Of a DNA stretch of 46,473 nt, positions 19,915 through 46,473 are shown piece after piece. The translations under genes and the position numbers were made by a program. Source of the stretch: a virus (lineage: Duplodnaviria; Heunggongvirae; Uroviricota; Caudoviricetes). Location of the stretch: IMG/VR virus record IMGVR_UViG_2563366824_000001; one strand, 5' to 3'. Under the pieces are notes generated by a model, which saw only the letters and a list, made by a program, of their open reading frames with translations, was not told the origin of the DNA and did not search any database. The number at the start of each line of letters is the position of its first letter. Position 1 is the first letter of the stretch.

Positions 19915-20033
19915 TATGTTTATAGTATTAGCATCAATTTCTCATCAGATGCTATTCAACAATACAAATTACCCATAAACCTCGTTTTTACGGGGTTTTG
20001 TTATATTTAAACATTACCGAATAGATATAAATC

Positions 20034-35709: not shown

Positions 35710-37145
<1,436 letters not shown>

Positions 37146-37219
37146 TGATTGGTCGCTGATGCAAAATGTTTTATGTGAAACCGCCTCCGGGCGGTTTTAT
37201 CGTTTATGGAGCATGACGA

Positions 37220-40200
37220 ATGGGTAAAGGCAGCAGTAAGGGGCATACCCCGCGCGAAGCGAAGGACAACCTGAAGTCCACGCAACTGCTGAGTGTGATC
37301 GATGCCATCAGCGAAGGGCCGGTTGAAGGTCCGGTGGATGGATTAAAAAGCGTGCTGCTGAACAGTACGCCGGTGCTGGACAGTGAGGGGAATACCAATA
37401 TATCCGGCGTCACGGTGGTGTTCCGGGCCGGTGAGCAGGAGCAGACTCCGCCGGAGGGATTTGAATCCTCCGGTTCCGAGACGGTGCTGGGTACGGAAGT
37501 GAAATATGACACGCCGATCACCCGCACCATCACGTCGGCAAACATCGACCGTCTGCGCTTTACCTTCGGTGTGCAGGCACTGGTGGAAACCACCTCAAAG
37601 GGGGACAGGAATCCATCGGAAGTCCGCCTGCTGGTTCAGATACAACGTAACGGTGGCTGGGTGACGGAAAAAGACATCACCATTAAGGGTAAAACCACCT
37701 CGCAGTATCTGGCCTCAGTGGTGGTGGATAACCTGCCGCCGCGCCCGTTTAATATCCGGATGCGCAGGATGACGCCGGACAGCACCACAGACCAGCTGCA
37801 GAACAAAACGCTCTGGTCGTCATACACCGAAATCATCGATGTGAAACAGTGCTACCCGAACACGGCACTGGTCGGCGTGCAGGTGGACTCGGAGCAGTTC
37901 GGCAGCCAGCAGGTGAGCCGTAATTATCATCTGCGCGGGCGTATTCTGCAGGTGCCGTCGAACTATAACCCGCAGACGCGGCAATACAGCGGTATCTGGG
38001 ACGGGACGTTTAAACCGGCATACAGCAACAACATGGCCTGGTGTCTGTGGGATATGCTGACCCATCCGCGCTACGGCATGGGGAAGCGTCTCGGTGCGGC
38101 GGATGTGGACAAATGGGCGCTGTATGTCATCGGCCAGAATTGCGACCAGTCGGTGCCGGATGGCTTTGGTGGCACAGAGCCGCGCATCACCTGTAATGCC
38201 TGGCTGACCACGCAGCGCAAGGCGTGGGATGTGCTCAGTGATTTCTGCTCGGCGATGCGCTGTATGCCGGTATGGAACGGGCAGACGCTGACGTTCGTGC
38301 AGGACCGGCCATCGGATAAGGTGTGGACCTATAACCGCAGTAATGTGGTGATGCCGGATGATGGCGCGCCGTTCCGCTACAGCTTCAGCGCCCTGAAGGA
38401 CCGTCATAATGCCGTTGAGGTGAACTGGATTGACCCGAATAACGGCTGGGAGACGGCGACAGAGCTTGTGGAGGACACGCAGGCCATTGCCCGTTACGGT
38501 CGTAACGTCACGAAGATGGATGCCTTTGGCTGTACCAGCCGGGGGCAGGCACACCGCGCCGGGCTGTGGCTGATTAAAACAGAACTGCTGGAAACGCAGA
38601 CCGTGGATTTCAGCGTCGGCGCAGAAGGGCTTCGCCATGTACCGGGTGATGTTATTGAAATCTGCGATGATGACTATGCGGGGATCAGCATTGGCGGGCG
38701 CGTGCTGGCGGTGAACAGCCAGACCCGGACGCTGACGCTCGACCGTGAAATCACGCTGCCATCCTCCGGTACCACGCTGATAAGCCTGGTTGACGGGCAG
38801 GGGAGTCCGGTCAGCGTGGAGGTTCAGTCCGTCACCGACGGCGTGAAGGTGAAAGTGAGTCGGGTTCCTGACGGCGTTGCCGAATACAGCGTGTGGGGGC
38901 TGAAGCTGCCGACGCTGCGCCAGCGCCTGTTCCGCTGTGTGAGTATCCGTGAGAACGATGACGGCACGTATGCCATCACTGCCGTGCAGCATGTACCGGA
39001 AAAAGAAGCCATCGTGGATAACGGGGCGCACTTTGACGGCGACCAGAGCGGCACGGTGAATGGTGTCACGCCGCCAGCGGTGCAGCACCTGACCGCCGAA
39101 GTCACCGCAGACAGCGGGGAATACCAGGTGCTGGCGCGCTGGGATACGCCGAAGGTGGTGAAGGGCGTGAGCTTTATGCTTCGCCTGACCGTGGCAGCGG
39201 ATGACGGCAGTGAGCGGCTGGTCAGCACGGCCCGGACGACGGAAACCACATACCGCTTCAGGCAGCTGGCTCTGGGAAATTACAGTCTGACAGTCCGGGC
39301 GGTAAATGCGTGGGGGCAGCAGGGCGATCCGGCGTCGGTATCGTTCCGGATTGCCGCACCGGCAGCGCCATCGCGGATTGAGCTGACGCCGGGCTATTTT
39401 CAGATAACTGCCACGCCGCATCTTGCGGTTTATGATCCGACGGTACAGTTTGAGTTCTGGTTCTCGGAAAATCGGATTGCGGATATCAGGCAGGTTGAAA
39501 CCAGCGCGCGTTATCTTGGCACGGCGCTGTACTGGATAGCCGCCAGTATCAATATCAAACCGGGCCATGATTATTATTTTTACGTTCGCAGTGTGAACAC
39601 CGTCGGCAAATCGATATTCGTGGAGGCTGTCGGTCGGGCGAGCGATGATGCGGAAGGTTACCTGGATTTTTTCAAAGGCAAGATAACCGAATCCCATCTC
39701 GGCAAGGAGCTGCTGGAAAAAGTCGAGCTGACGGAGGATAACGCCAGCAGACTGGAGGAGTTTTCGAAAGAGTGGAAGGACGCCAACGATAAGTGGAATG
39801 CCATGTGGGCTGTCAAAATTGAGCAGACCAAAGACGGCAAACATTATGTCGCGGGGCTTGGCCTCAGCATGGAGGACACGGAGGAAGGCAAACTGAGCCA
39901 GTTCCTGGTTGCCGCTAACCGTATCGCATTTATTGACCCGGCAAACGGGAATGAAACGCCGATGTTTGTGGCGCAGGGCAATCAGATATTCATGAACGAA
40001 GTGTTCCTGAAATATCTGACGGCTCCCACCATTACCAGCGGCGGTAATCCTCCGGCATTTTCCCTGACACCGGACGGGCGGCTGACGGCGAAAAATGCCG
40101 ATATCAGCGGTAACGTGAATGCGAACTCCGGGACGCTCAACAACGTCACGATTAACGAGAACTGCCGGGTTCTGGGAAAACTGTCCGCGAACCAGATTGA

Positions 40201-40615
40201 AGGCGATCTCGTTAAAACAGTGGGCAAAGCTTTCCCCCGTGACTCCCGAGCACCGGAGCGGTGGCCATCAGGGACCATTACCGTCAGGGTTTATGACGAT
40301 CAGCCGTTTGACCGGCAAATTGTTATTCCGGCGGTGGCATTCAGTGGCGCTAAGCATGAGAGAGAGCATACTGATATTTACTCCTCATGCCGTCTGATAG
40401 TGCGGAAAAACGGTGCTGAAATTTATAACCGTACCGCGCTGGATAATACGCTGATTTACAGTGGCGTTATTGATATGCCTGCCGGTCACGGTCACATGAC
40501 ACTGGAGTTTTCGGTGTCAGCATGGCTGGTAAATGGCTGGTATCCCACAGCAAGTATCAGCGATTTGCTGGTTGTTGTGATGAAGAAAGCCACTGCAGGC
40601 ATCACGATTAGCTGA
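37220..40615 (+). CDS. J: Central tail fibre / host specificity protein J
   Basis: 1131 aa; SD ggag; position after I and size as lambda J. Confidence 0.9.
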
Positions 40616-40633
40616 ATTTTATAACCCAGATAC

Positions 40634-40659
40634 GGGCACCAGAAATGGTGCCTTTTTTA
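40634..40659 (+). terminator. Rho-independent terminator after J
   Basis: ggcacc-agaaat-ggtgcc followed by TTTTTT. Confidence 0.6.
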
Positions 40660-40682
40660 TTGCAGAAAAGCGAGAGGTAATT

Positions 40683-41282
40683 ATGCGTAAATTATGTGCT
40701 GTTATTCTGTCCGCAGTAGTCTGGCTGGTTGCCGCTGGTACGCCAGCGAGCGCAGCAGAGCATCAGTCCACACTAAGCGCCGGGTATCTTCAGACCCATA
40801 CTGATATGCCAGGCAGTGATGACCTGAAGGGCATTAACGTGAAATACCGTTATGAATTTACGGACACGCTGGGGCTGGTGACGTCATTCAGTTATGCCAA
40901 TGCCAAAGATGAGCAAAGAACGCATTACAGCGATACCCGCTGGCATGAAGATTCAGTGCGTAACCGCTGGTTCAGCATGATGGCGGGGCCATCTGTACGC
41001 GTGAATGAATGGTTCAGTGCTTATGCGATGGCAGGTGTGGCTTACAGCCGTGTTTCGACGTTCTCCGGGGATTATCTCCGCGTAACTGACAACAAGGGGA
41101 AAACGCACGATGTGCTGACCGGAAGTGATGACGATCGCCACAGCAACACGTCTCTGGCGTGGGGAGCTGGCGTGCAGTTTAACCCGACCGAATCCGTGGC
41201 CATTGATATTGCTTATGAAGGCTCCGGCAGTGGCGACTGGCGCACTGACGGTTTCATCGTGGGTGTCGGTTATAAGTTCTGA
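40683..41282 (+). CDS. lom: Lom/Ail/PagC-family outer-membrane beta-barrel protein
   Basis: 199 aa with signal peptide and beta-barrel pattern ending ...GFIVGVGYKF; located after J as in lambda. Confidence 0.85.
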   Translation: MRKLCAVILSAVVWLVAAGTPASAAEHQSTLSAGYLQTHTDMPGSDDLKGINVKYRYEFTDTLGLVTSFSYANAKDEQRTHYSDTRWHEDSVRNRWFSMMAGPSVRVNEWFSAYAMAGVAYSRVSTFSGDYLRVTDNKGKTHDVLTGSDDDRHSNTSLAWGAGVQFNPTESVAIDIAYEGSGSGDWRTDGFIVGVGYKF

Positions 41283-41309
41283 TTAGCCAGGTAACACAGT
41301 GTTATGACA

Positions 41310-41337
41310 GCCCGCCGGTTCAGGCGGGCTTTTTTGT
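41310..41337 (+). terminator. Rho-independent terminator after lom
   Basis: gcccgcc-ggttca-ggcgggc followed by TTTTTT. Confidence 0.65.
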
Positions 41338-41346
41338 GGAGTGGAT

Positions 41347-43746
41347 ATGGCAGCAGTAAAAATCTCAGGTGTGCTGAAAGATGGTGCGGGAAAACCAATA
41401 CAGAACTGCACTATTCAACTGAAGGCAAAGCGTAACAGCACCACGGTACTGGTGAACACGGTGGCTTCTGAAAATCCGGATGAAGCCGGACGTTACAGCA
41501 TGGATGTTGAGTATGGCCAGTACAGCGTCACCCTGCTGGTTGAAGGTTTTCCGCCTTCACATGCCGGGACCATCACCGTGTATGAAGATTCTAAGCCGGG
41601 GACGCTGAATGATTTTCTCGGTGCCATGACGGAAGATGATGTCATGCCGGAGGCATTGCGTCGTTTTGAGGAAATGGTGGAAGAAGCGGCACGCAACGCT
41701 GAAGCCGCCTCTCAGAGCGCAGCGGCGGCAAAGAAATCCGAAACTGCAGCGGCATCATCGAAGAACGCGGCGAAAACCTCAGAAACGAATGCAGCTAATA
41801 GTGCACAGGCGGCAGCGACCTCAAAGACTGCATCGGCAAACTCCGCGACAGCAGCCAAAAAATCAGAAACCAACGCGAAAAATAGCGAGACAGCCGCAAA
41901 GACGAGCGAAACCAACGCAAAGTCCAGCCAGACGGCAGCGAAAACCAGCGAAACGAATGCCAAAGCCAGTGAAACTGCGGCAAAAAACAGCCAGGTTGCA
42001 GCAGCCCAAAGCGAGAGCGCGGCAGCCGGTTCTGCGACTTCAGCAGCTGGATCAGCAACTGCTGCGGCTAACAGCCAGAAAGCTGCGAAGACGAGTGAAA
42101 CTAACGCAAAGTCCAGCCAGACGGCAGCGAAGACCAGCGAAACGAATGCCAAAGCCAGCGAAACTGCGGCGAAAAACAGTCAGGATGCAGCAGCCCAAAG
42201 CGAGAGTGCTGCAGCTGGTTCTGCAAGCGCGGCGGCTGCTTCTGCCACTGCATCAGCCAACAGTCAAAAAGCAGCAAAAACCAGTGAAACCAATGCAAAG
42301 ACAAGCGAGACTGCAGCGGCGAACTCGGCGAAAGCATCGGCAGCAAGCCAGACAGCAGCTAAAGCAAGTGAAGACGCAGCCAGAGAGTATGCAAGTCAGG
42401 CAGCAGAGCCGTATAAATATGTCTTACAGCCACTGCCTGATGTGTGGATACCGTTTAATGATTCACTGGATATGATTACGGGCTTTTCGCCGTCATATAA
42501 AAAAATTGTTATTGGTGATGATGAAATAACGATGCCTGGCGACAAGGTTGTTAAGTTTAAACGCGCATCAACTGCCACATATATCAATAAATCAGGCGTA
42601 TTTAGTGTTGCTAAAATTGATGAGCCACGATTTGAAAAAGAAGGTTTATTGATTGAAGGACAGCGCACTAACTATTTTGTTAAATCCAATACTCCCGCTG
42701 AATGGACGAGTACCAGCAATATCGATAAAACTAATAATGGTGTTGATGAATTTGGTTTTTCATATGCCAAAATGCGAACAAAAGATAATATGACAGGACA
42801 ATCATCTGCACTTAGTCTGCATACATGCAGTGCATCCCGGGGGATTGATGTTAGTGGCGATAATAAGTATTGCACTGTTTCATGCAGGGTTAAAGCTCCT
42901 GATGGTCTTCGTTGTCGTTTGCGTTTTGAAAAATACGATGGGTCGGTTTATACATTTTTAGGAGATGCTTATTTAACTTTCGGAACTCTGATAATAGAAA
43001 AAACTGGCGGAGCAGCCAATAGAATAGCAGCTACTGCAACTAAAGATCCGGTTACAGGGTGGATTTTCTATGAGGCAACTATAGAAGCTGTTGAAGGTGA
43101 AACCTTAATTGGCGCAATGATTCAGTATGCGCCGAAAAAAGGTGGTATAACTGAAGCGGGAGATTATATTTACCTTGCAACACCACAATTTGAAAACGGC
43201 GGATGTGCTTCATCTTTTGTTATTACGACAACTGCACCCGCAACCCGCTCCAGTGATATGGTGACGATCCCAACTGAAAATAATATCTATAATAGACCGC
43301 TTACGTGTCTTGTCGAGGTTAATAGAAATTGGGGCGATATTCCTCCTAATGTAGCACCGCGTATTTTTGATTTTTCTGGTGTGCCACCTATTGAGTCAAT
43401 TACATACGCTTTTAACACAACTGAGAAATATTACGGTCAGCTTTATATGCAAACTTATAAAGCGTCGACAAGTACTTACGTTTCTAGTGTGTTTGCTGGT
43501 CGAACTGATGTTCGAAAATTCATTGGTGGTTTTAATATTTATTCTGATGGTACTAAACGAGTAGTTTCTAACGGTGAGGCTACTAAAACTATGAAAACGG
43601 AGTGGACGGGCGTAAAAACACGGACCTTTATTCGAATTGGAGGTCAAGCCACATCGGGAACTCGTCATCTATTCGGCCATTTGAGAAATCTTCGTCTCTG
43701 GCATAAAGAATTAACTGATGCGCAAATGGGGGAGAGTATTAAATGA
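41347..43746 (+). CDS. stf: Side tail fibre protein Stf with Ala/Thr/Ser-rich repeat region and a divergent C-terminal domain
   Basis: N-terminus AVKISGVLKDGAGKPIQNCTIQLKAKRNSTTVLVNTVASENPDEAGRYSMDVEYGQYSV matches lambda Stf; C-terminus ends ...LRNLRLWHKELTDAQM (LamG/ConA-like signature); AT-rich 3' half. Confidence 0.85.
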   Translation: MAAVKISGVLKDGAGKPIQNCTIQLKAKRNSTTVLVNTVASENPDEAGRYSMDVEYGQYSVTLLVEGFPPSHAGTITVYEDSKPGTLNDFLGAMTEDDVMPEALRRFEEMVEEAARNAEAASQSAAAAKKSETAAASSKNAAKTSETNAANSAQAAATSKTASANSATAAKKSETNAKNSETAAKTSETNAKSSQTAAKTSETNAKASETAAKNSQVAAAQSESAAAGSATSAAGSATAAANSQKAAKTSETNAKSSQTAAKTSETNAKASETAAKNSQDAAAQSESAAAGSASAAAASATASANSQKAAKTSETNAKTSETAAANSAKASAASQTAAKASEDAAREYASQAAEPYKYVLQPLPDVWIPFNDSLDMITGFSPSYKKIVIGDDEITMPGDKVVKFKRASTATYINKSGVFSVAKIDEPRFEKEGLLIEGQRTNYFVKSNTPAEWTSTSNIDKTNNGVDEFGFSYAKMRTKDNMTGQSSALSLHTCSASRGIDVSGDNKYCTVSCRVKAPDGLRCRLRFEKYDGSVYTFLGDAYLTFGTLIIEKTGGAANRIAATATKDPVTGWIFYEATIEAVEGETLIGAMIQYAPKKGGITEAGDYIYLATPQFENGGCASSFVITTTAPATRSSDMVTIPTENNIYNRPLTCLVEVNRNWGDIPPNVAPRIFDFSGVPPIESITYAFNTTEKYYGQLYMQTYKASTSTYVSSVFAGRTDVRKFIGGFNIYSDGTKRVVSNGEATKTMKTEWTGVKTRTFIRIGGQATSGTRHLFGHLRNLRLWHKELTDAQMGESIK
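41893..42221. repeat. Two roughly 144-bp direct repeat copies (about 185-bp period) inside stf, over a background of shorter 33-bp-period repeats
   Basis: AAKTSETNAKSSQTAAKTSETNAKASETAAKNSQ.AAAQSESAAAGSA is encoded twice (about 41893..42036 and 42078..42221) with near-identical DNA. Confidence 0.7.
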
Positions 43747-44024
43747 AAGATTTAACACTCAAATTTGCAGACAGGGTCGACTTTTCGGCCTTTATGGAGA
43801 GCATTGGCTATTATGATGACGAGTCGATGCAGGATGATATTCTTATTGACGTGATAGGTAATGTGTACAAAGAAACCGGAGAACTTACTGAAGATGGCGA
43901 GCCGGTATGTGTTAAGGAGGACGGATATTTTGTAAATGTGCGCATCATTAATGATTCGCAAATATCGTCATTATTCGATGAACACGCGGTTGCTGTTGAG
44001 CATCAACTCCGTAGCTGGATGTGA
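43743..44024 (+). CDS. Hypothetical protein downstream of stf (possible fibre-associated chaperone/adaptor)
   Basis: 93-aa acidic ORF, ATGA-coupled to the stf stop; AT-rich. Confidence 0.5.
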   Translation: MKDLTLKFADRVDFSAFMESIGYYDDESMQDDILIDVIGNVYKETGELTEDGEPVCVKEDGYFVNVRIINDSQISSLFDEHAVAVEHQLRSWM

Positions 44025-44033
44025 GGAAGAAAA

Positions 44034-44738
44034 ATGGCTACATCGACAGTAATTCCTGATGACATCAAAACGCTAAAGGGAGATGTCAGTAAGGCAAAGG
44101 AAGATATTTCCTCAATTAACGTAAAAGTATCAACGCTTCAGACTGATATGGACAGTGCAAAGCAGGATATCAGTACCAGATACACAAAAACAGAAGTGGA
44201 TAATAAGCTGAAAAACAAAGTGGAAGTGAACGATCTGGAAAGTGGTCGTTATGGCGGAGATTTTTACCCGCTGACTGGCCGTGAAGCGTTTTATTTATGG
44301 GGATTGGGCACAACTACAGCGGCGGCAAATCTTTATCTTAATCCTGACCCTGCAATTTCGTCTGTGCTGCGGTCAACATCGTCTATCCGCTATAAACATT
44401 CAGTAGAGACGATAGATTCAGAGCACGCCGATCTCATTTTCAGGATGCGCCCTGTGTGGTACAGGTCGCAATGCGAAAATGACAGGCGTGACTGGGGATT
44501 CTATGGATTGATTGCCGAGGAAGTAGGAGAAATTGCCCCTCAGTTTGTTCACTGGCGACCAGCCAACGAAGATGATGCACCGGAAACCATTTCCAGCAAT
44601 GGCCTTGTTGCCGAAGGTGTAATGTACGAACGTCTGGTTGTTCCACTGATTCACCATATCCAGAAACTGACTGAAAGAGTTGATGAACTTGAGTCAGAAT
44701 TGAAGTTGTTATCAACTTCCCAAAGCGATATCGGATAA
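44034..44738 (+). CDS. Small coiled-coil fibre-like protein with C-terminal S74-type intramolecular chaperone domain
   Basis: SD gagga; N-terminal heptad-repeat region; C-terminal STSSIRYKHSVETIDS ... RPVWYRS ... GFYGLIAEEVGEIAPQFV ... ERLVVPLIHHIQKLTERVDELESEL fits the S74 pattern. Confidence 0.55.
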   Translation: MATSTVIPDDIKTLKGDVSKAKEDISSINVKVSTLQTDMDSAKQDISTRYTKTEVDNKLKNKVEVNDLESGRYGGDFYPLTGREAFYLWGLGTTTAAANLYLNPDPAISSVLRSTSSIRYKHSVETIDSEHADLIFRMRPVWYRSQCENDRRDWGFYGLIAEEVGEIAPQFVHWRPANEDDAPETISSNGLVAEGVMYERLVVPLIHHIQKLTERVDELESELKLLSTSQSDIG

Positions 44739-44748
44739 AGGAGGAGTA

Positions 44749-45042
44749 ATGGATATAACACCTTTTCTTCATGCGCTTTGTGCTGTGGCTGCGCAGGTAA
44801 TGATTGGTCTTTTTACCGGAAACTGGGTTTACGGGGCGATAGCCGGTTGTACGTTCTTCATTGCGCGTGAACACACCCAGGCAGAATATCGCTGGATTGA
44901 AATGTTCGGGCATGGCAAGCGGATTAACATGCCGTGGTGGGGCGGTTTTGATCCGCGTGTTTGGGATGTGGCAAGCCTGATAGATTTTGCTGTGCCGGTG
45001 GTGGCGTGTCTGCTGGTCTGGCTGTTGGTTAATCGTGGGTGA
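44749..45042 (+). CDS. Small inner-membrane protein with two predicted TM helices
   Basis: SD aaggagg; hydrophobic helices LHALCAVAAQVMIGLFTGNWVYGAIAGCTFFIA and VASLIDFAVPVVACLLVWLLV. Confidence 0.6.
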   Translation: MDITPFLHALCAVAAQVMIGLFTGNWVYGAIAGCTFFIAREHTQAEYRWIEMFGHGKRINMPWWGGFDPRVWDVASLIDFAVPVVACLLVWLLVNRG

Positions 45043-45052
45043 AAAAAGGTGA

Positions 45053-45172
45053 GCTGTATATGCAACGGAGGAAGAAACCCCGTTGCTGGAAGCCTGGAAA
45101 AAGTATCGGGTGTTGCTGAACCGTGTTGATACGTCAACTGCACAGGATATTGAATGGCCAGCACTGCCGTAG
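45053..45172 (+). pseudogene. tfa: 3'-terminal remnant (39 codons) of a tail fibre assembly gene tfa
   Basis: Open frame encodes [39 protein letters not shown], matching the conserved Tfa C-terminus (...YR..L..VDTSTAPDIEWP..P, from memory); no in-frame start, and an upstream TGA at 45050. Confidence 0.55.
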
Positions 45173-45269
45173 GGTAAAACATATAAATTCTATAATTAGA
45201 TGTATCTTTCCATTTACGGCAAGGAAGGGGGCTTGGAAGACGTAAAGCATCTCACACCGAGATTATTTT

Positions 45270-45860
45270 TTATATGTCAGGTGTCTGAAGTTTTGCTTTG
45301 GCTCTTAAAATGGTTTGCCGCGAGGTTTTGAATTCCCGGGCAATGGCACTTATACTTACACCTGACTTAATTCGTTCGAATACCACCTGTTTCTGTTCTT
45401 CATTTAACACAGGTGGTCGACCAAAACGTTTCCCTGCGCCCCGGGCTCTTACTATCCCGGAATGAGTGCGTTCAAGTAAAAGGTCTCGTTCAAATTCAGC
45501 GACTGCTGAAATTACTTGCATCATCATTTTTCCTGTTGGACTGGTCAGGTCAATGCCCCCCAATGCTAAGCAATGCACTCTGATACCTGTTTCGGTCAGT
45601 TGTTCCACTGTTTTCCTGATATCCATTGCATTACAACCAAGGCGATCCAGTTTTGTCACAATCAATTGATCACCACATTTCAGGCGAGCAAGCAACCGGT
45701 TAAAACCAGGACGCTCACTGGTTGCTGCTGAGCCGCTAATGTGTTCTTCGATTATTTGCTGAGGTTTGATTTTAAAACCTGCACTTTCGATTTCCCGGCG
45801 TTGATTTTCGGTGGTCTGATCCAGAGTTGATATCCGACAGTAAGCAAAAATTCGAGACAT
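45270..45860 (-). CDS. Serine recombinase (resolvase / Pin-like DNA invertase family)
   Basis: 196 aa; N-terminal catalytic motif [13 protein letters not shown] with Ser nucleophile, LDRLG motif, C-terminal HTH ([15 protein letters not shown]). Confidence 0.85.
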
Positions 45861-46239
45861 AGTGAGACTCTATACGAAATTGGTGTACATATCATAATGC
45901 ATATCCAAAAATTATTTCGCTTATTATTGCACATATTTGTATGTATACGTTCGAAAATAAACAAATTCGGATGCAGTCCCGTAATTTTGGTGTAACCCAA
46001 AATCGATTTTTTGAAAAATGGCTTTAACTCGGTTTGTTTTTCGAACTCCGGGCGGACTCGAGAAAGACGAATAATAGTGTTGTATGTTGTTTTAGCCAGA
46101 TTTCAATTTGTTTGGTCTTGGAAAAGTGGAGCAAAAAGTTGTTAAAGTGGAAAAATGGTAAAAAAGTAGGTTGTTGCGGCATAACGTAGTTGTTGATATT
46201 TTTTAATGCATTGAAAAATTATTTTTCAGGGGGTGTTTA

Positions 46240-46473
46240 TTACACTTTACCATTTAAATTTTGGTTGTCTTTAAGAACTGATATCGCTGTTTGTAATAAT
46301 TCTTTGTTATCCAGCCATGACTTTTTCTTTATGTTTCCTTCAATGTAATCAAGCAATGTTCTGGTATTGATAGGTCTTCCCTGTTTTGCCACTTCCACGA
46401 CAGCATCTCCCAGGATAATTCTGACTTCAGGAAGCTGCGCGGGGAACCACTTTAGGGTGTCTTTTGATTTCAT
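46240..46473 (-). CDS. Hypothetical small protein; start codon is the last three bases of the window
   Basis: 77-aa ORF MKSKDTLKWFPAQLP...; promoter and SD lie outside the window, so the start cannot be validated. Confidence 0.35.
   Translation of the reverse strand: MKSKDTLKWFPAQLPEVRIILGDAVVEVAKQGRPINTRTLLDYIEGNIKKKSWLDNKELLQTAISVLKDNQNLNGKV

Follow-up and report, generated by a model that had tools for sequence, protein, structure and literature searches.

The pinR gene beside a tfa remnant in a lambdoid prophage of Escherichia coli: a probable resolvase gene left from a decayed Tn3-family transposon

Background

A serine recombinase gene that lies beside tail fibre genes raises the question of which DNA, if any, its product rearranges. 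The stretch analysed here, the 46,473-nucleotide virus record IMGVR_UViG_2563366824_000001 (hereafter the window, meaning the whole stretch), is a nearly complete lambdoid prophage of Escherichia coli in which J, lom, stf and three small plus-strand open reading frames (ORFs) are followed by a recombinase locus. The invertases Gin, Cin, Hin and PinE, with their G, C, H and P segments, share with this recombinase a small serine recombinase fold, a C-terminal helix-turn-helix (HTH) and a location near tail fibre genes, and the initial annotation had considered an invertase of the Mu, P1 and e14 type without its segment, an orphan like pinR in Rac, or an enzyme that may act on another element. 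In this work, the gene was found to be pinR itself, its crossover site (site I) to have eroded, and the equivalent of the catalytic residue R71 to be a cysteine; it is probable that the gene was left as a resolvase gene by a decayed mini transposon of the Tn3 family and not by a fibre shufflon. The two genes that face each other at the locus are as follows.

45062..45172, plus strand: 3' remnant of tfa, the last 36 codons and the stop codon, with no start codon; 34 of the 36 residues equal the TfaR C-terminus
45270..45860, minus strand: pinR, small serine recombinase of 196 amino acids (aa) with a catalytic domain and HTH_7, 100% identical to PinR of K-12

The presence of both the 196-aa recombinase ORF and the 36-codon tfa remnant was verified, and they are convergent as had been described, with their stop codons at 45172 and 45270.

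PinR and its relatives

The recombinase ORF matched Pfam Resolvase (PF00239) at 2.5e-36 over residues 4-144 and HTH_7 (PF02796) at 3.8e-11, which is the architecture of the small serine recombinases, an N-terminal Resolvase domain followed by a C-terminal HTH_7 in a protein of about 180-200 aa, and S11 (in YCRISTLDQ) aligned with S10 of the gamma-delta resolvase. Because the protein is identical to PinR of the K-12 Rac prophage in all residues (196/196), the locus was already known: pinR is an ordinary gene, known and annotated before, and its orphan status "as pinR in Rac" was correctly flagged, the neighbours tfa / pinR / ydfK-ynaE being common to the window and Rac.

The identity of PinR was 35-38% to the Gin, Cin, PinE and HK225 invertases (38% to PinE of e14) and 32% to TnpR of Tn3 and gamma-delta, and the PinR clade was split from both groups with 100% bootstrap support in a distance-based neighbour-joining tree with 200 bootstraps and a small sampling of references. 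A HMMER comparison with solved structures gave 105 bits for Gin and 83 bits for the gamma-delta resolvase. When a large database was searched, thousands of homologues were found; identity was 77-100% in the best 120, many of which are carried by plasmids; among the best-scoring 5,000 records of a plasmid collection, copies at 80-90% identity were present in 250 and copies at 60-80% identity in 1,529. A scan of one genome per species yielded 383 relatives, and 80 of these loci were retrieved and examined.

The TnpR relatives that are 77-85% identical to PinR are located approximately 160 bp from a divergent transposase gene of the Tn3 family, which was present as a long gene at 19 of the 80 loci and was truncated at 4 more, and the family transposase matched NCBIfam NF033527 at 1170 bits (cut-off 500). 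For example, plasmid pRM10386-2 carries a complete element of 3,814 bp with tnpA, perfect 40-bp terminal inverted repeats (IRs), a TTTTA target duplication and a recombinase 84-85% identical to PinR. The clustering with transposon resolvases that the initial annotation had named as evidence against its own reading was thus observed in genomic association, although the clade is also distinct from the TnpR proteins of Tn3 and gamma-delta.

Of 76 relatives, 63 have a common layout in the 135 bp that precede the recombinase gene. In this layout, subsite I consists of a 26-bp dyad, TGTCCGAAACCG-NN-CGGTTTCGTACA (12+2+12), and subsite II is a second dyad with the same half-sites placed 6 bp wider apart; a TATAAT -10 element follows subsite II, and a third half-site cluster, subsite III, is located just before the start codon. 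This region was called res because it lies between divergent tnpA and tnpR and over the tnpR promoter, as in Tn3, an assignment suggested by architecture. Like Tn3 and gamma-delta, these relatives combine a divergent tnpA with a region of several subsites over the tnpR promoter, terminal IRs and 5-bp duplications. In contrast to the Tn3 and gamma-delta systems, to whose resolvases the clade is only 32% identical, the subsite I of the PinR family has the 26-bp 12+2+12 form that resembles invertase sites, and it has the AAACC...GGTTT blocks in the same 26-bp layout as the sites of Gin-type enzymes. However, the PinR relatives possess accessory subsites, as resolvases do, unlike Gin, Cin, Hin and PinE, which form a separate clade.

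Several further observations were made among the relatives. In subsite I of the loci L016-L087, the central dinucleotide (columns 13-14) was predominantly GT at some loci and AC at others, which are reverse complements, and therefore it seems that the asymmetric core of subsite I can point either way with respect to the recombinase gene. The IncK2/Z plasmid NZ_CP029742.1 (locus L007, 4786..6964) has an intact recombinase with Arg76, a well-formed res and two Tn3-type IRs without tnpA, and the IR by the 3' end of the recombinase gene is split by an insertion of the IS4321 family. It was considered as an intact mobile mini-element and rejected, as TTAGC, which flanks it at the left end, and AAGGA, at the right end, form no duplication and the left IR is a diverged variant; this unit is more likely a hybrid. 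Tn5403, a cryptic tnpA/tnpR transposon considered as a candidate source, was also rejected, as the Tn5403 recombinase of pKpQIL is co-directional with its transposase gene and 26% identical to PinR, and its TnpA is 34% identical to that of the family. A few singletons among metagenome and assembly proteins (P0004-P0007) combine a plasmid-type N-terminal half containing Arg76 with a PinR-type C-terminal half and could be either true recombinants between transposon and prophage or assembly chimeras.

In the Erwinia phage LS-2018a, a gene of the PinR clade (L002, 7880..8840) whose product is 61% identical to PinR is located between the genes for the large terminase and the portal and is followed by two small ORFs, and the same record contains a second copy of a PinR-clade gene elsewhere. 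Its upstream region has three dyads in the same places, with the half-site GTACTAAA instead, and its recognition helix also differs. An ancestral state linked to fibre genes was rejected on account of this homologue, which lies between terminase and portal genes without an invertible segment.

Relics of a transposon around pinR

Non-autonomous derivatives of the Tn3 family are miniature elements bounded by Tn3-type IRs, and 5-bp target duplications are a hallmark of Tn3-family insertion. In the window, a unit of 834 bp (45227..46060) has the order IR - res - tnpR - IR and lacks tnpA. Its parts and its flanks were as follows, the left and right IRs being termed IRL and IRR; the subsites were scored in bits with position weight matrices (PWMs) built from the relatives, which are related and non-independent sequences.

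45222..45226, no strand: putative 5-bp target duplication, left copy (AGGAA), adjoining the outer end of the IRR relic
45227..45263, plus strand: IRR relic, by the 3' end of pinR; 24/32 matches to the 40-bp IR of pRM10386-2 plus the terminal GGGG (local alignment)
45870..45891, minus strand: relic of res subsite III, located after the -10 element and before the start codon; 20.9 bits (family 21.4-38.7, best shuffled 12.0)
45891..45896, minus strand: predicted -10 element of pinR, TATGAT (TATAAT in the relatives), at a position conserved across 63 relatives
45902..45933, minus strand: relic of res subsite II, decayed; 17.3 bits (family 22.1-52.9, shuffles at most 4.9)
45948..45973, minus strand: position of res subsite I (crossover), unrecognisable; -1.8 bits (family 18.5-44.6, shuffles at most 8.7), with fragments TCCGAA and TTTCGAAC left
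46021..46060, minus strand: IRL relic, moderately supported; 24/40 matches to the IR of pRM10386-2 and about 27/40 to the IR variant of plasmid L007 (manual count)
46061..46065, no strand: putative target duplication, right copy; AGAAA in the window, AGGAA in Rac, Qin and HannyBb

On the side of the pinR stop codon, the BLAST alignment with the plasmid transposon continues beyond the gene to 45225, the outer end of the transposon IR. On the other side, the IRL relic was the only other match to the 40-bp IR in the window, and both its strand and its side agree with expectation, as it lies just past res, at the point where a tnpA gene would start; given this position and orientation, a chance match is unlikely. 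AGGAA is present at both ends of the unit in six related loci (Rac, Qin, HannyBb, L008, L014 and L015), and the window has AGGAA and AGAAA. A tblastn search with the family TnpA found no tnpA in the window, Rac, Qin or HannyBb. With the exception of tnpA, the features of a Tn3-type system are all kept in the window as relics. The unit is similar to the non-autonomous Tn3 derivatives in being bounded by IRs, in having no transposase and in its 5-bp duplication, but it differs from them in that a full-length resolvase gene has been kept and in that its IRs are now too decayed for mobilisation.

The res region itself has decayed, since all three subsites of the window scored below the family minima (18.5 bits in subsite I, 22.1 in II and 21.4 in III), and the subsite PWMs found no other position above threshold in the 46-kb window. 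A generic promoter and terminator scan gave no match for the pinR promoter, and the -10 element was identified by its conservation. When the window was compared with Rac, Qin and HannyBb, identity was 99.3-99.7% in pinR, 99-100% in the spacer between tfa and pinR, 96% in the tfa remnant and 95.6% in the 45 bp that contain the -10 element and subsite III, and it was 81% in the relic of sites I and II. The interval 45996..46239, from the transposon relic to ydfK, was approximately 66% identical in the same comparison, with insertions and deletions, and both of its sides were 95-100% identical; this divergence looks like either two old haplotypes or a recombination patch.

Substitution of a catalytic arginine

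The catalytic set of the small serine recombinases (Y6, R8, S10, D36, R68 and R71 in Tn3 numbering) is incomplete in PinR, which keeps Y7, R9, S11 and R73. The residue that replaces Arg71 is encoded at the following position.

45633..45635, minus strand: Cys76 codon TGT (CGT in the closest transposon copy), at the position of the catalytic Arg71 of the Tn3 and gamma-delta resolvases in alignments

PinR and PinQ, together with a second prophage lineage (P0009-type), have DRLGC instead of DRLGR, while 112 of the best 120 homologues have arginine at position 76, as do PinE and Gin. The second Cys76 lineage is 85% identical to PinR, has 374 member sequences and is likewise convergent to a tfa gene. 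At the position of D36, a Glu is present throughout the PinR clade. In the Tn3 resolvase, the R71A and R71K changes left no detectable recombination and lowered the cleavage rate approximately 1000-fold, while binding to site I and synapsis were retained (PMC2794168). By analogy, the catalytic activity of PinR would have been lost with the change to Cys76. The recognition helix of PinR differs at only 1-2 positions from those of the intact TnpR relatives, and it differs from those of Gin and PinE.

Because copies within the PinR group showed only 0-5 nucleotide differences, too few for a selection test, the test was run on the second Cys76 lineage. The ratio of non-synonymous to synonymous polymorphism (pN/pS) between the two Cys76 lineages was 0.43 (34 non-synonymous and 24 synonymous differences; P = 0.0018 against neutrality), and that between prophage and plasmid copies was 0.15-0.20. 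This comparison suggests that constraint after the change from Arg to Cys was relaxed, not absent.

Search for an invertible segment

The window contains no substrate for PinR, neither Gin-type sites nor the crossover site of its own family. Between stf and pinR, the only sizeable minus-strand ORFs (44440..44913 and 44829..45182) match no PHROG, and the initial annotation was therefore right that no alternative stf/tfa segment is encoded on the opposite strand. The same applies to its statement on crossover sites, as searches of the whole window revealed nothing above chance: the e14 pix sequence gave no match with up to 3 mismatches, and the AAACCNNGGTTT core (AAACC-NN-GGTTT of the Gin-type sites) gave one match with up to 1 mismatch (at 19977) where 1.8 are expected by chance. 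Inverted repeats in 36000..46473 were short (17-31 nt) and imperfect (70-88% complementarity), and no coding segment is enclosed by any of them. When the window was scanned with the PWMs of the half-site and of the three subsites, the matches other than the relics ahead of pinR were four lone half-sites, and no dyad was among them. In comparison with the loci of Gin, Cin, Hin and PinE, the window thus lacks both flanking inverted crossover sites and alternative fibre cassettes.

Origin and present activity of PinR

The history of the locus can be reconstructed as follows. In a lambdoid phage ancestor, a small Tn3-family transposon would have entered the DNA immediately behind tfa, with duplication of AGGAA, and the transposase gene would then have been lost, leaving the 834-bp unit. 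Subsequently, the crossover subsite would have decayed past recognition, subsite II would have been badly eroded, and the arginine equivalent to R71 would have been replaced by cysteine. Such an insertion explains both the convergent orientation of pinR and the absence of a fibre cassette, and the position of pinR beside tfa would then probably be an accident of transposition. With site I decayed and the arginine replaced, neither a substrate in the window nor more than very poor catalysis is to be expected, and PinR is predicted to be a poor or inactive catalyst. Its present activity is most likely sequence-specific DNA binding, which could lead to autoregulation and possibly other regulation, because the HTH is almost unchanged and the relics of subsites II and III overlap the pinR promoter. 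Judging from these sequences, PinR probably still binds the half-sites of the TTTCGTAC type that persist over its own promoter, and pinR is probably autoregulated.

Several points weigh against this explanation. The assignment of res in the relatives comes from architecture and not from experiment. The IRL relic is weak when taken alone (24/40), with 0.26 such matches expected by chance in the window, and the boundary of the target duplication assumes a 3-nt deletion in the IRR. When a query that joins the flanks of the 834-bp element was searched against 5,426 E. coli genomes, no contiguous match, that is, no empty site, was found, and thus the case for an insertion is made by the IRs and the target duplication only. 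The loss of catalysis is extrapolated from changes to Ala and Lys in an enzyme that is 32% identical to PinR. The 2,618 records with an intact pinR at 99% or higher nucleotide identity fit a maintained function, and the selection test has limited power. Furthermore, PMC12529663 (2025) reports that overproduced PinQ raises inversion of the P segment from approximately 30% to 88%, that deletion of pinQ lowers it, and that overproduction of PinQ protects against T2; if PinQ were the catalyst of this inversion, Cys76 would not abolish activity.

Alternative explanations

A tentative proposal, which we regard as possible but would not favour, goes beyond the origin as a transposon resolvase: PinR and PinQ might be a catalytically crippled "pseudo-recombinase", deprived of its crossover site and of the arginine equivalent to R71, that is kept on lambdoid prophages in about half of E. 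coli genomes as a sequence-specific DNA-binding protein, either a regulator or a modulator of Gin-type invertases (PinE), and the reported PinQ-dependent inversion of e14 and resistance to T2 would then be indirect.

It is rather doubtful that PinR is an active invertase in trans, which flips the pix-bounded, e14-like P segment of another prophage outside the window. According to PMC12529663, the 1,797-bp P segment of e14 was inverted in survivors producing PinQ, quantitative PCR showed 88% inversion with PinQ and 26-30% in the controls, and the effect was gone when stfP, stfE or e14 was deleted. Targets would often be available, as pinE-like sequences were found in 2,888 of the 5,426 E. coli genomes, and site I of the PinR family has the same 12+2+12 layout as gix and pix. 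With the family half-site PWM, the gix half-site TATCCAAAACC scored 12.1 bits (P ~7e-5) and the pix half-site TCTCCCAAACC 5.4 bits (P ~0.002), but the other pix and gix half-sites scored -6.5, 0.5 and -9.2 bits, and the distance from the AAACC block to the GGTTT block is 2 bp larger in the family site I than in pix and gix. Some cross-binding of gix or pix by PinR is conceivable from these scores, although the recognition helix of PinR is unlike those of Gin and PinE and a cysteine occupies the R71 position. The paper also describes a pinE single mutant, in which pinQ and pinR are intact, as having its P segment locked in one orientation; it mentions no catalytic-site mutant of PinQ, and an assay of PinQ in cells that lack pinE was not found in the sections read. 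As yet, these data therefore do not separate catalysis by PinQ itself from an indirect action. The earlier suggestion that the recombinase may act on another element finds a counterpart in the published claim for PinQ and PinR on the e14 P segment.

An unlikely explanation is that pinR has no function and that this decaying gene of a transposon persists only by hitch-hiking, as a passenger, on a widely exchanged lambdoid module consisting of the tfa 3' end, pinR and ydfK. The decayed res, the lost catalytic residue and a pN/pS of up to 0.43 within the prophage lineages, compared with 0.15-0.20 between prophage and plasmid copies, are consistent with it, and as the non-coding neighbours are equally conserved (spacer 100%, tfa remnant 96%), the high nucleotide identity of pinR need not mean selection on pinR. 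However, thousands of genomes and at least 11 sequenced phage records carry an intact ORF, the pN/pS that followed the change from Arg to Cys lies significantly below 1, and deletion phenotypes of pinQ and pinR are reported in PMC12529663 and in the preprint bioRxiv 10.1101/2022.03.29.486199, the latter of which attributes transcriptional effects to PinR.

Finally, it is highly improbable that PinR is a tail-fibre invertase of the Gin/Cin/Pin type from whose side the stf/tfa segment and its crossover sites were deleted, which had been the premise of the initial annotation and which would agree with a gene that, like gin, cin and pinE, adjoins tail fibre genes, with the "DNA invertase" labels and with the slightly higher HMMER score against Gin, since PinR shares only 35-38% identity with the invertases and is split from them at 100% bootstrap, its nearest relatives are transposon and plasmid resolvases with res and not fibre-linked genes, the IR relics and the target duplication point to a transposon insertion, the gene faces the 3' end of tfa, in the orientation opposite to that of Mu gin, which abuts the 5' end of S' at gixR, and the 61%-identical homologue of LS-2018a is located between terminase and portal genes.

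Spread of the locus and the neighbouring tail fibre module

DNA homology to Rac spans 45061..46473 of the window, with an abrupt onset at 45061 inside tfaR. PinR (Rac) and PinQ (Qin) of K-12 share with the window the convergent tfa, the upstream ydfK/ynaE gene, the IR relics and the AGGAA duplication; they differ from it in that the tfa of the window has only 36 codons and in that the right copy of the duplication in the window has one substitution. PinQ was 99% identical to PinR in our alignment, in agreement with the figure in PMC12529663. The identical PinR protein is encoded by the phages mEp460_ev081, 2H10, Tritos, HannyBb and PhiR63_1, and at least 11 sequenced phage records contain an intact pinR ORF. 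Among complete E. coli genomes, 2,843 of 5,426 had a pinR match. PHROGs and phage annotators name PinR "DNA invertase". The gene that travels with pinR is the following.

46240..46473, minus strand: ydfK/ynaE-type gene, annotated "cold shock protein YdfK" at identical loci in RefSeq (phrog_2718)

The tfa remnant of the window lacks approximately 155 N-terminal codons. In place of stfR and tfaR, the window has an stf with a different distal part, followed by ORFs of 93, 234 and 97 aa, and tfa was thus cut to 36 codons because a different fibre module took the place of stfR/tfaR. This side tail fibre module (41341..45042) is unlike those of Rac and lambda. In its 801-aa Stf, the N-terminus and the Ala-rich repeats are of the usual kind, and the distal residues 437-637 match the NCBIfam "phage head spike fiber" domain. 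After stf, the three plus-strand ORFs that stand instead of tfa belong to phrog_1361 (93 aa) and phrog_1443 (97 aa), and the 234-aa ORF between them has a Peptidase_S74 chaperone domain and matches only the C-terminal ~240 residues of the >1,300-aa fibre proteins of phrog_3299. HannyBb has the same layout of the fibre module, with a middle protein of 343 aa. In E. coli genomes where tfa has no pinR behind it, homology to the window ends near the tfa stop codon (~45160), and the 52-bp spacer (45173..45226) occurs in E. coli genomes only together with pinR.

Conclusions

Approximately half of the complete E. coli genomes (2,843/5,426) carry genes of the pinR/pinQ type, which are also found in viable lambdoid phages and are routinely labelled "DNA invertase". 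An origin from the res/tnpR region of a Tn3-family transposon, which we consider the probable one, would explain why no invertible segment has ever been found beside pinR. The lost crossover site and the replaced residue, which is essential in the Tn3 resolvase, are directly relevant to the claim, published in 2025, that a new anti-phage mechanism is based on PinQ as an active inverting enzyme. If the catalytic defect is true, PinR would exemplify the conversion of a recombinase to a DNA-binding factor; otherwise, the R71 position would be dispensable in some serine recombinases.

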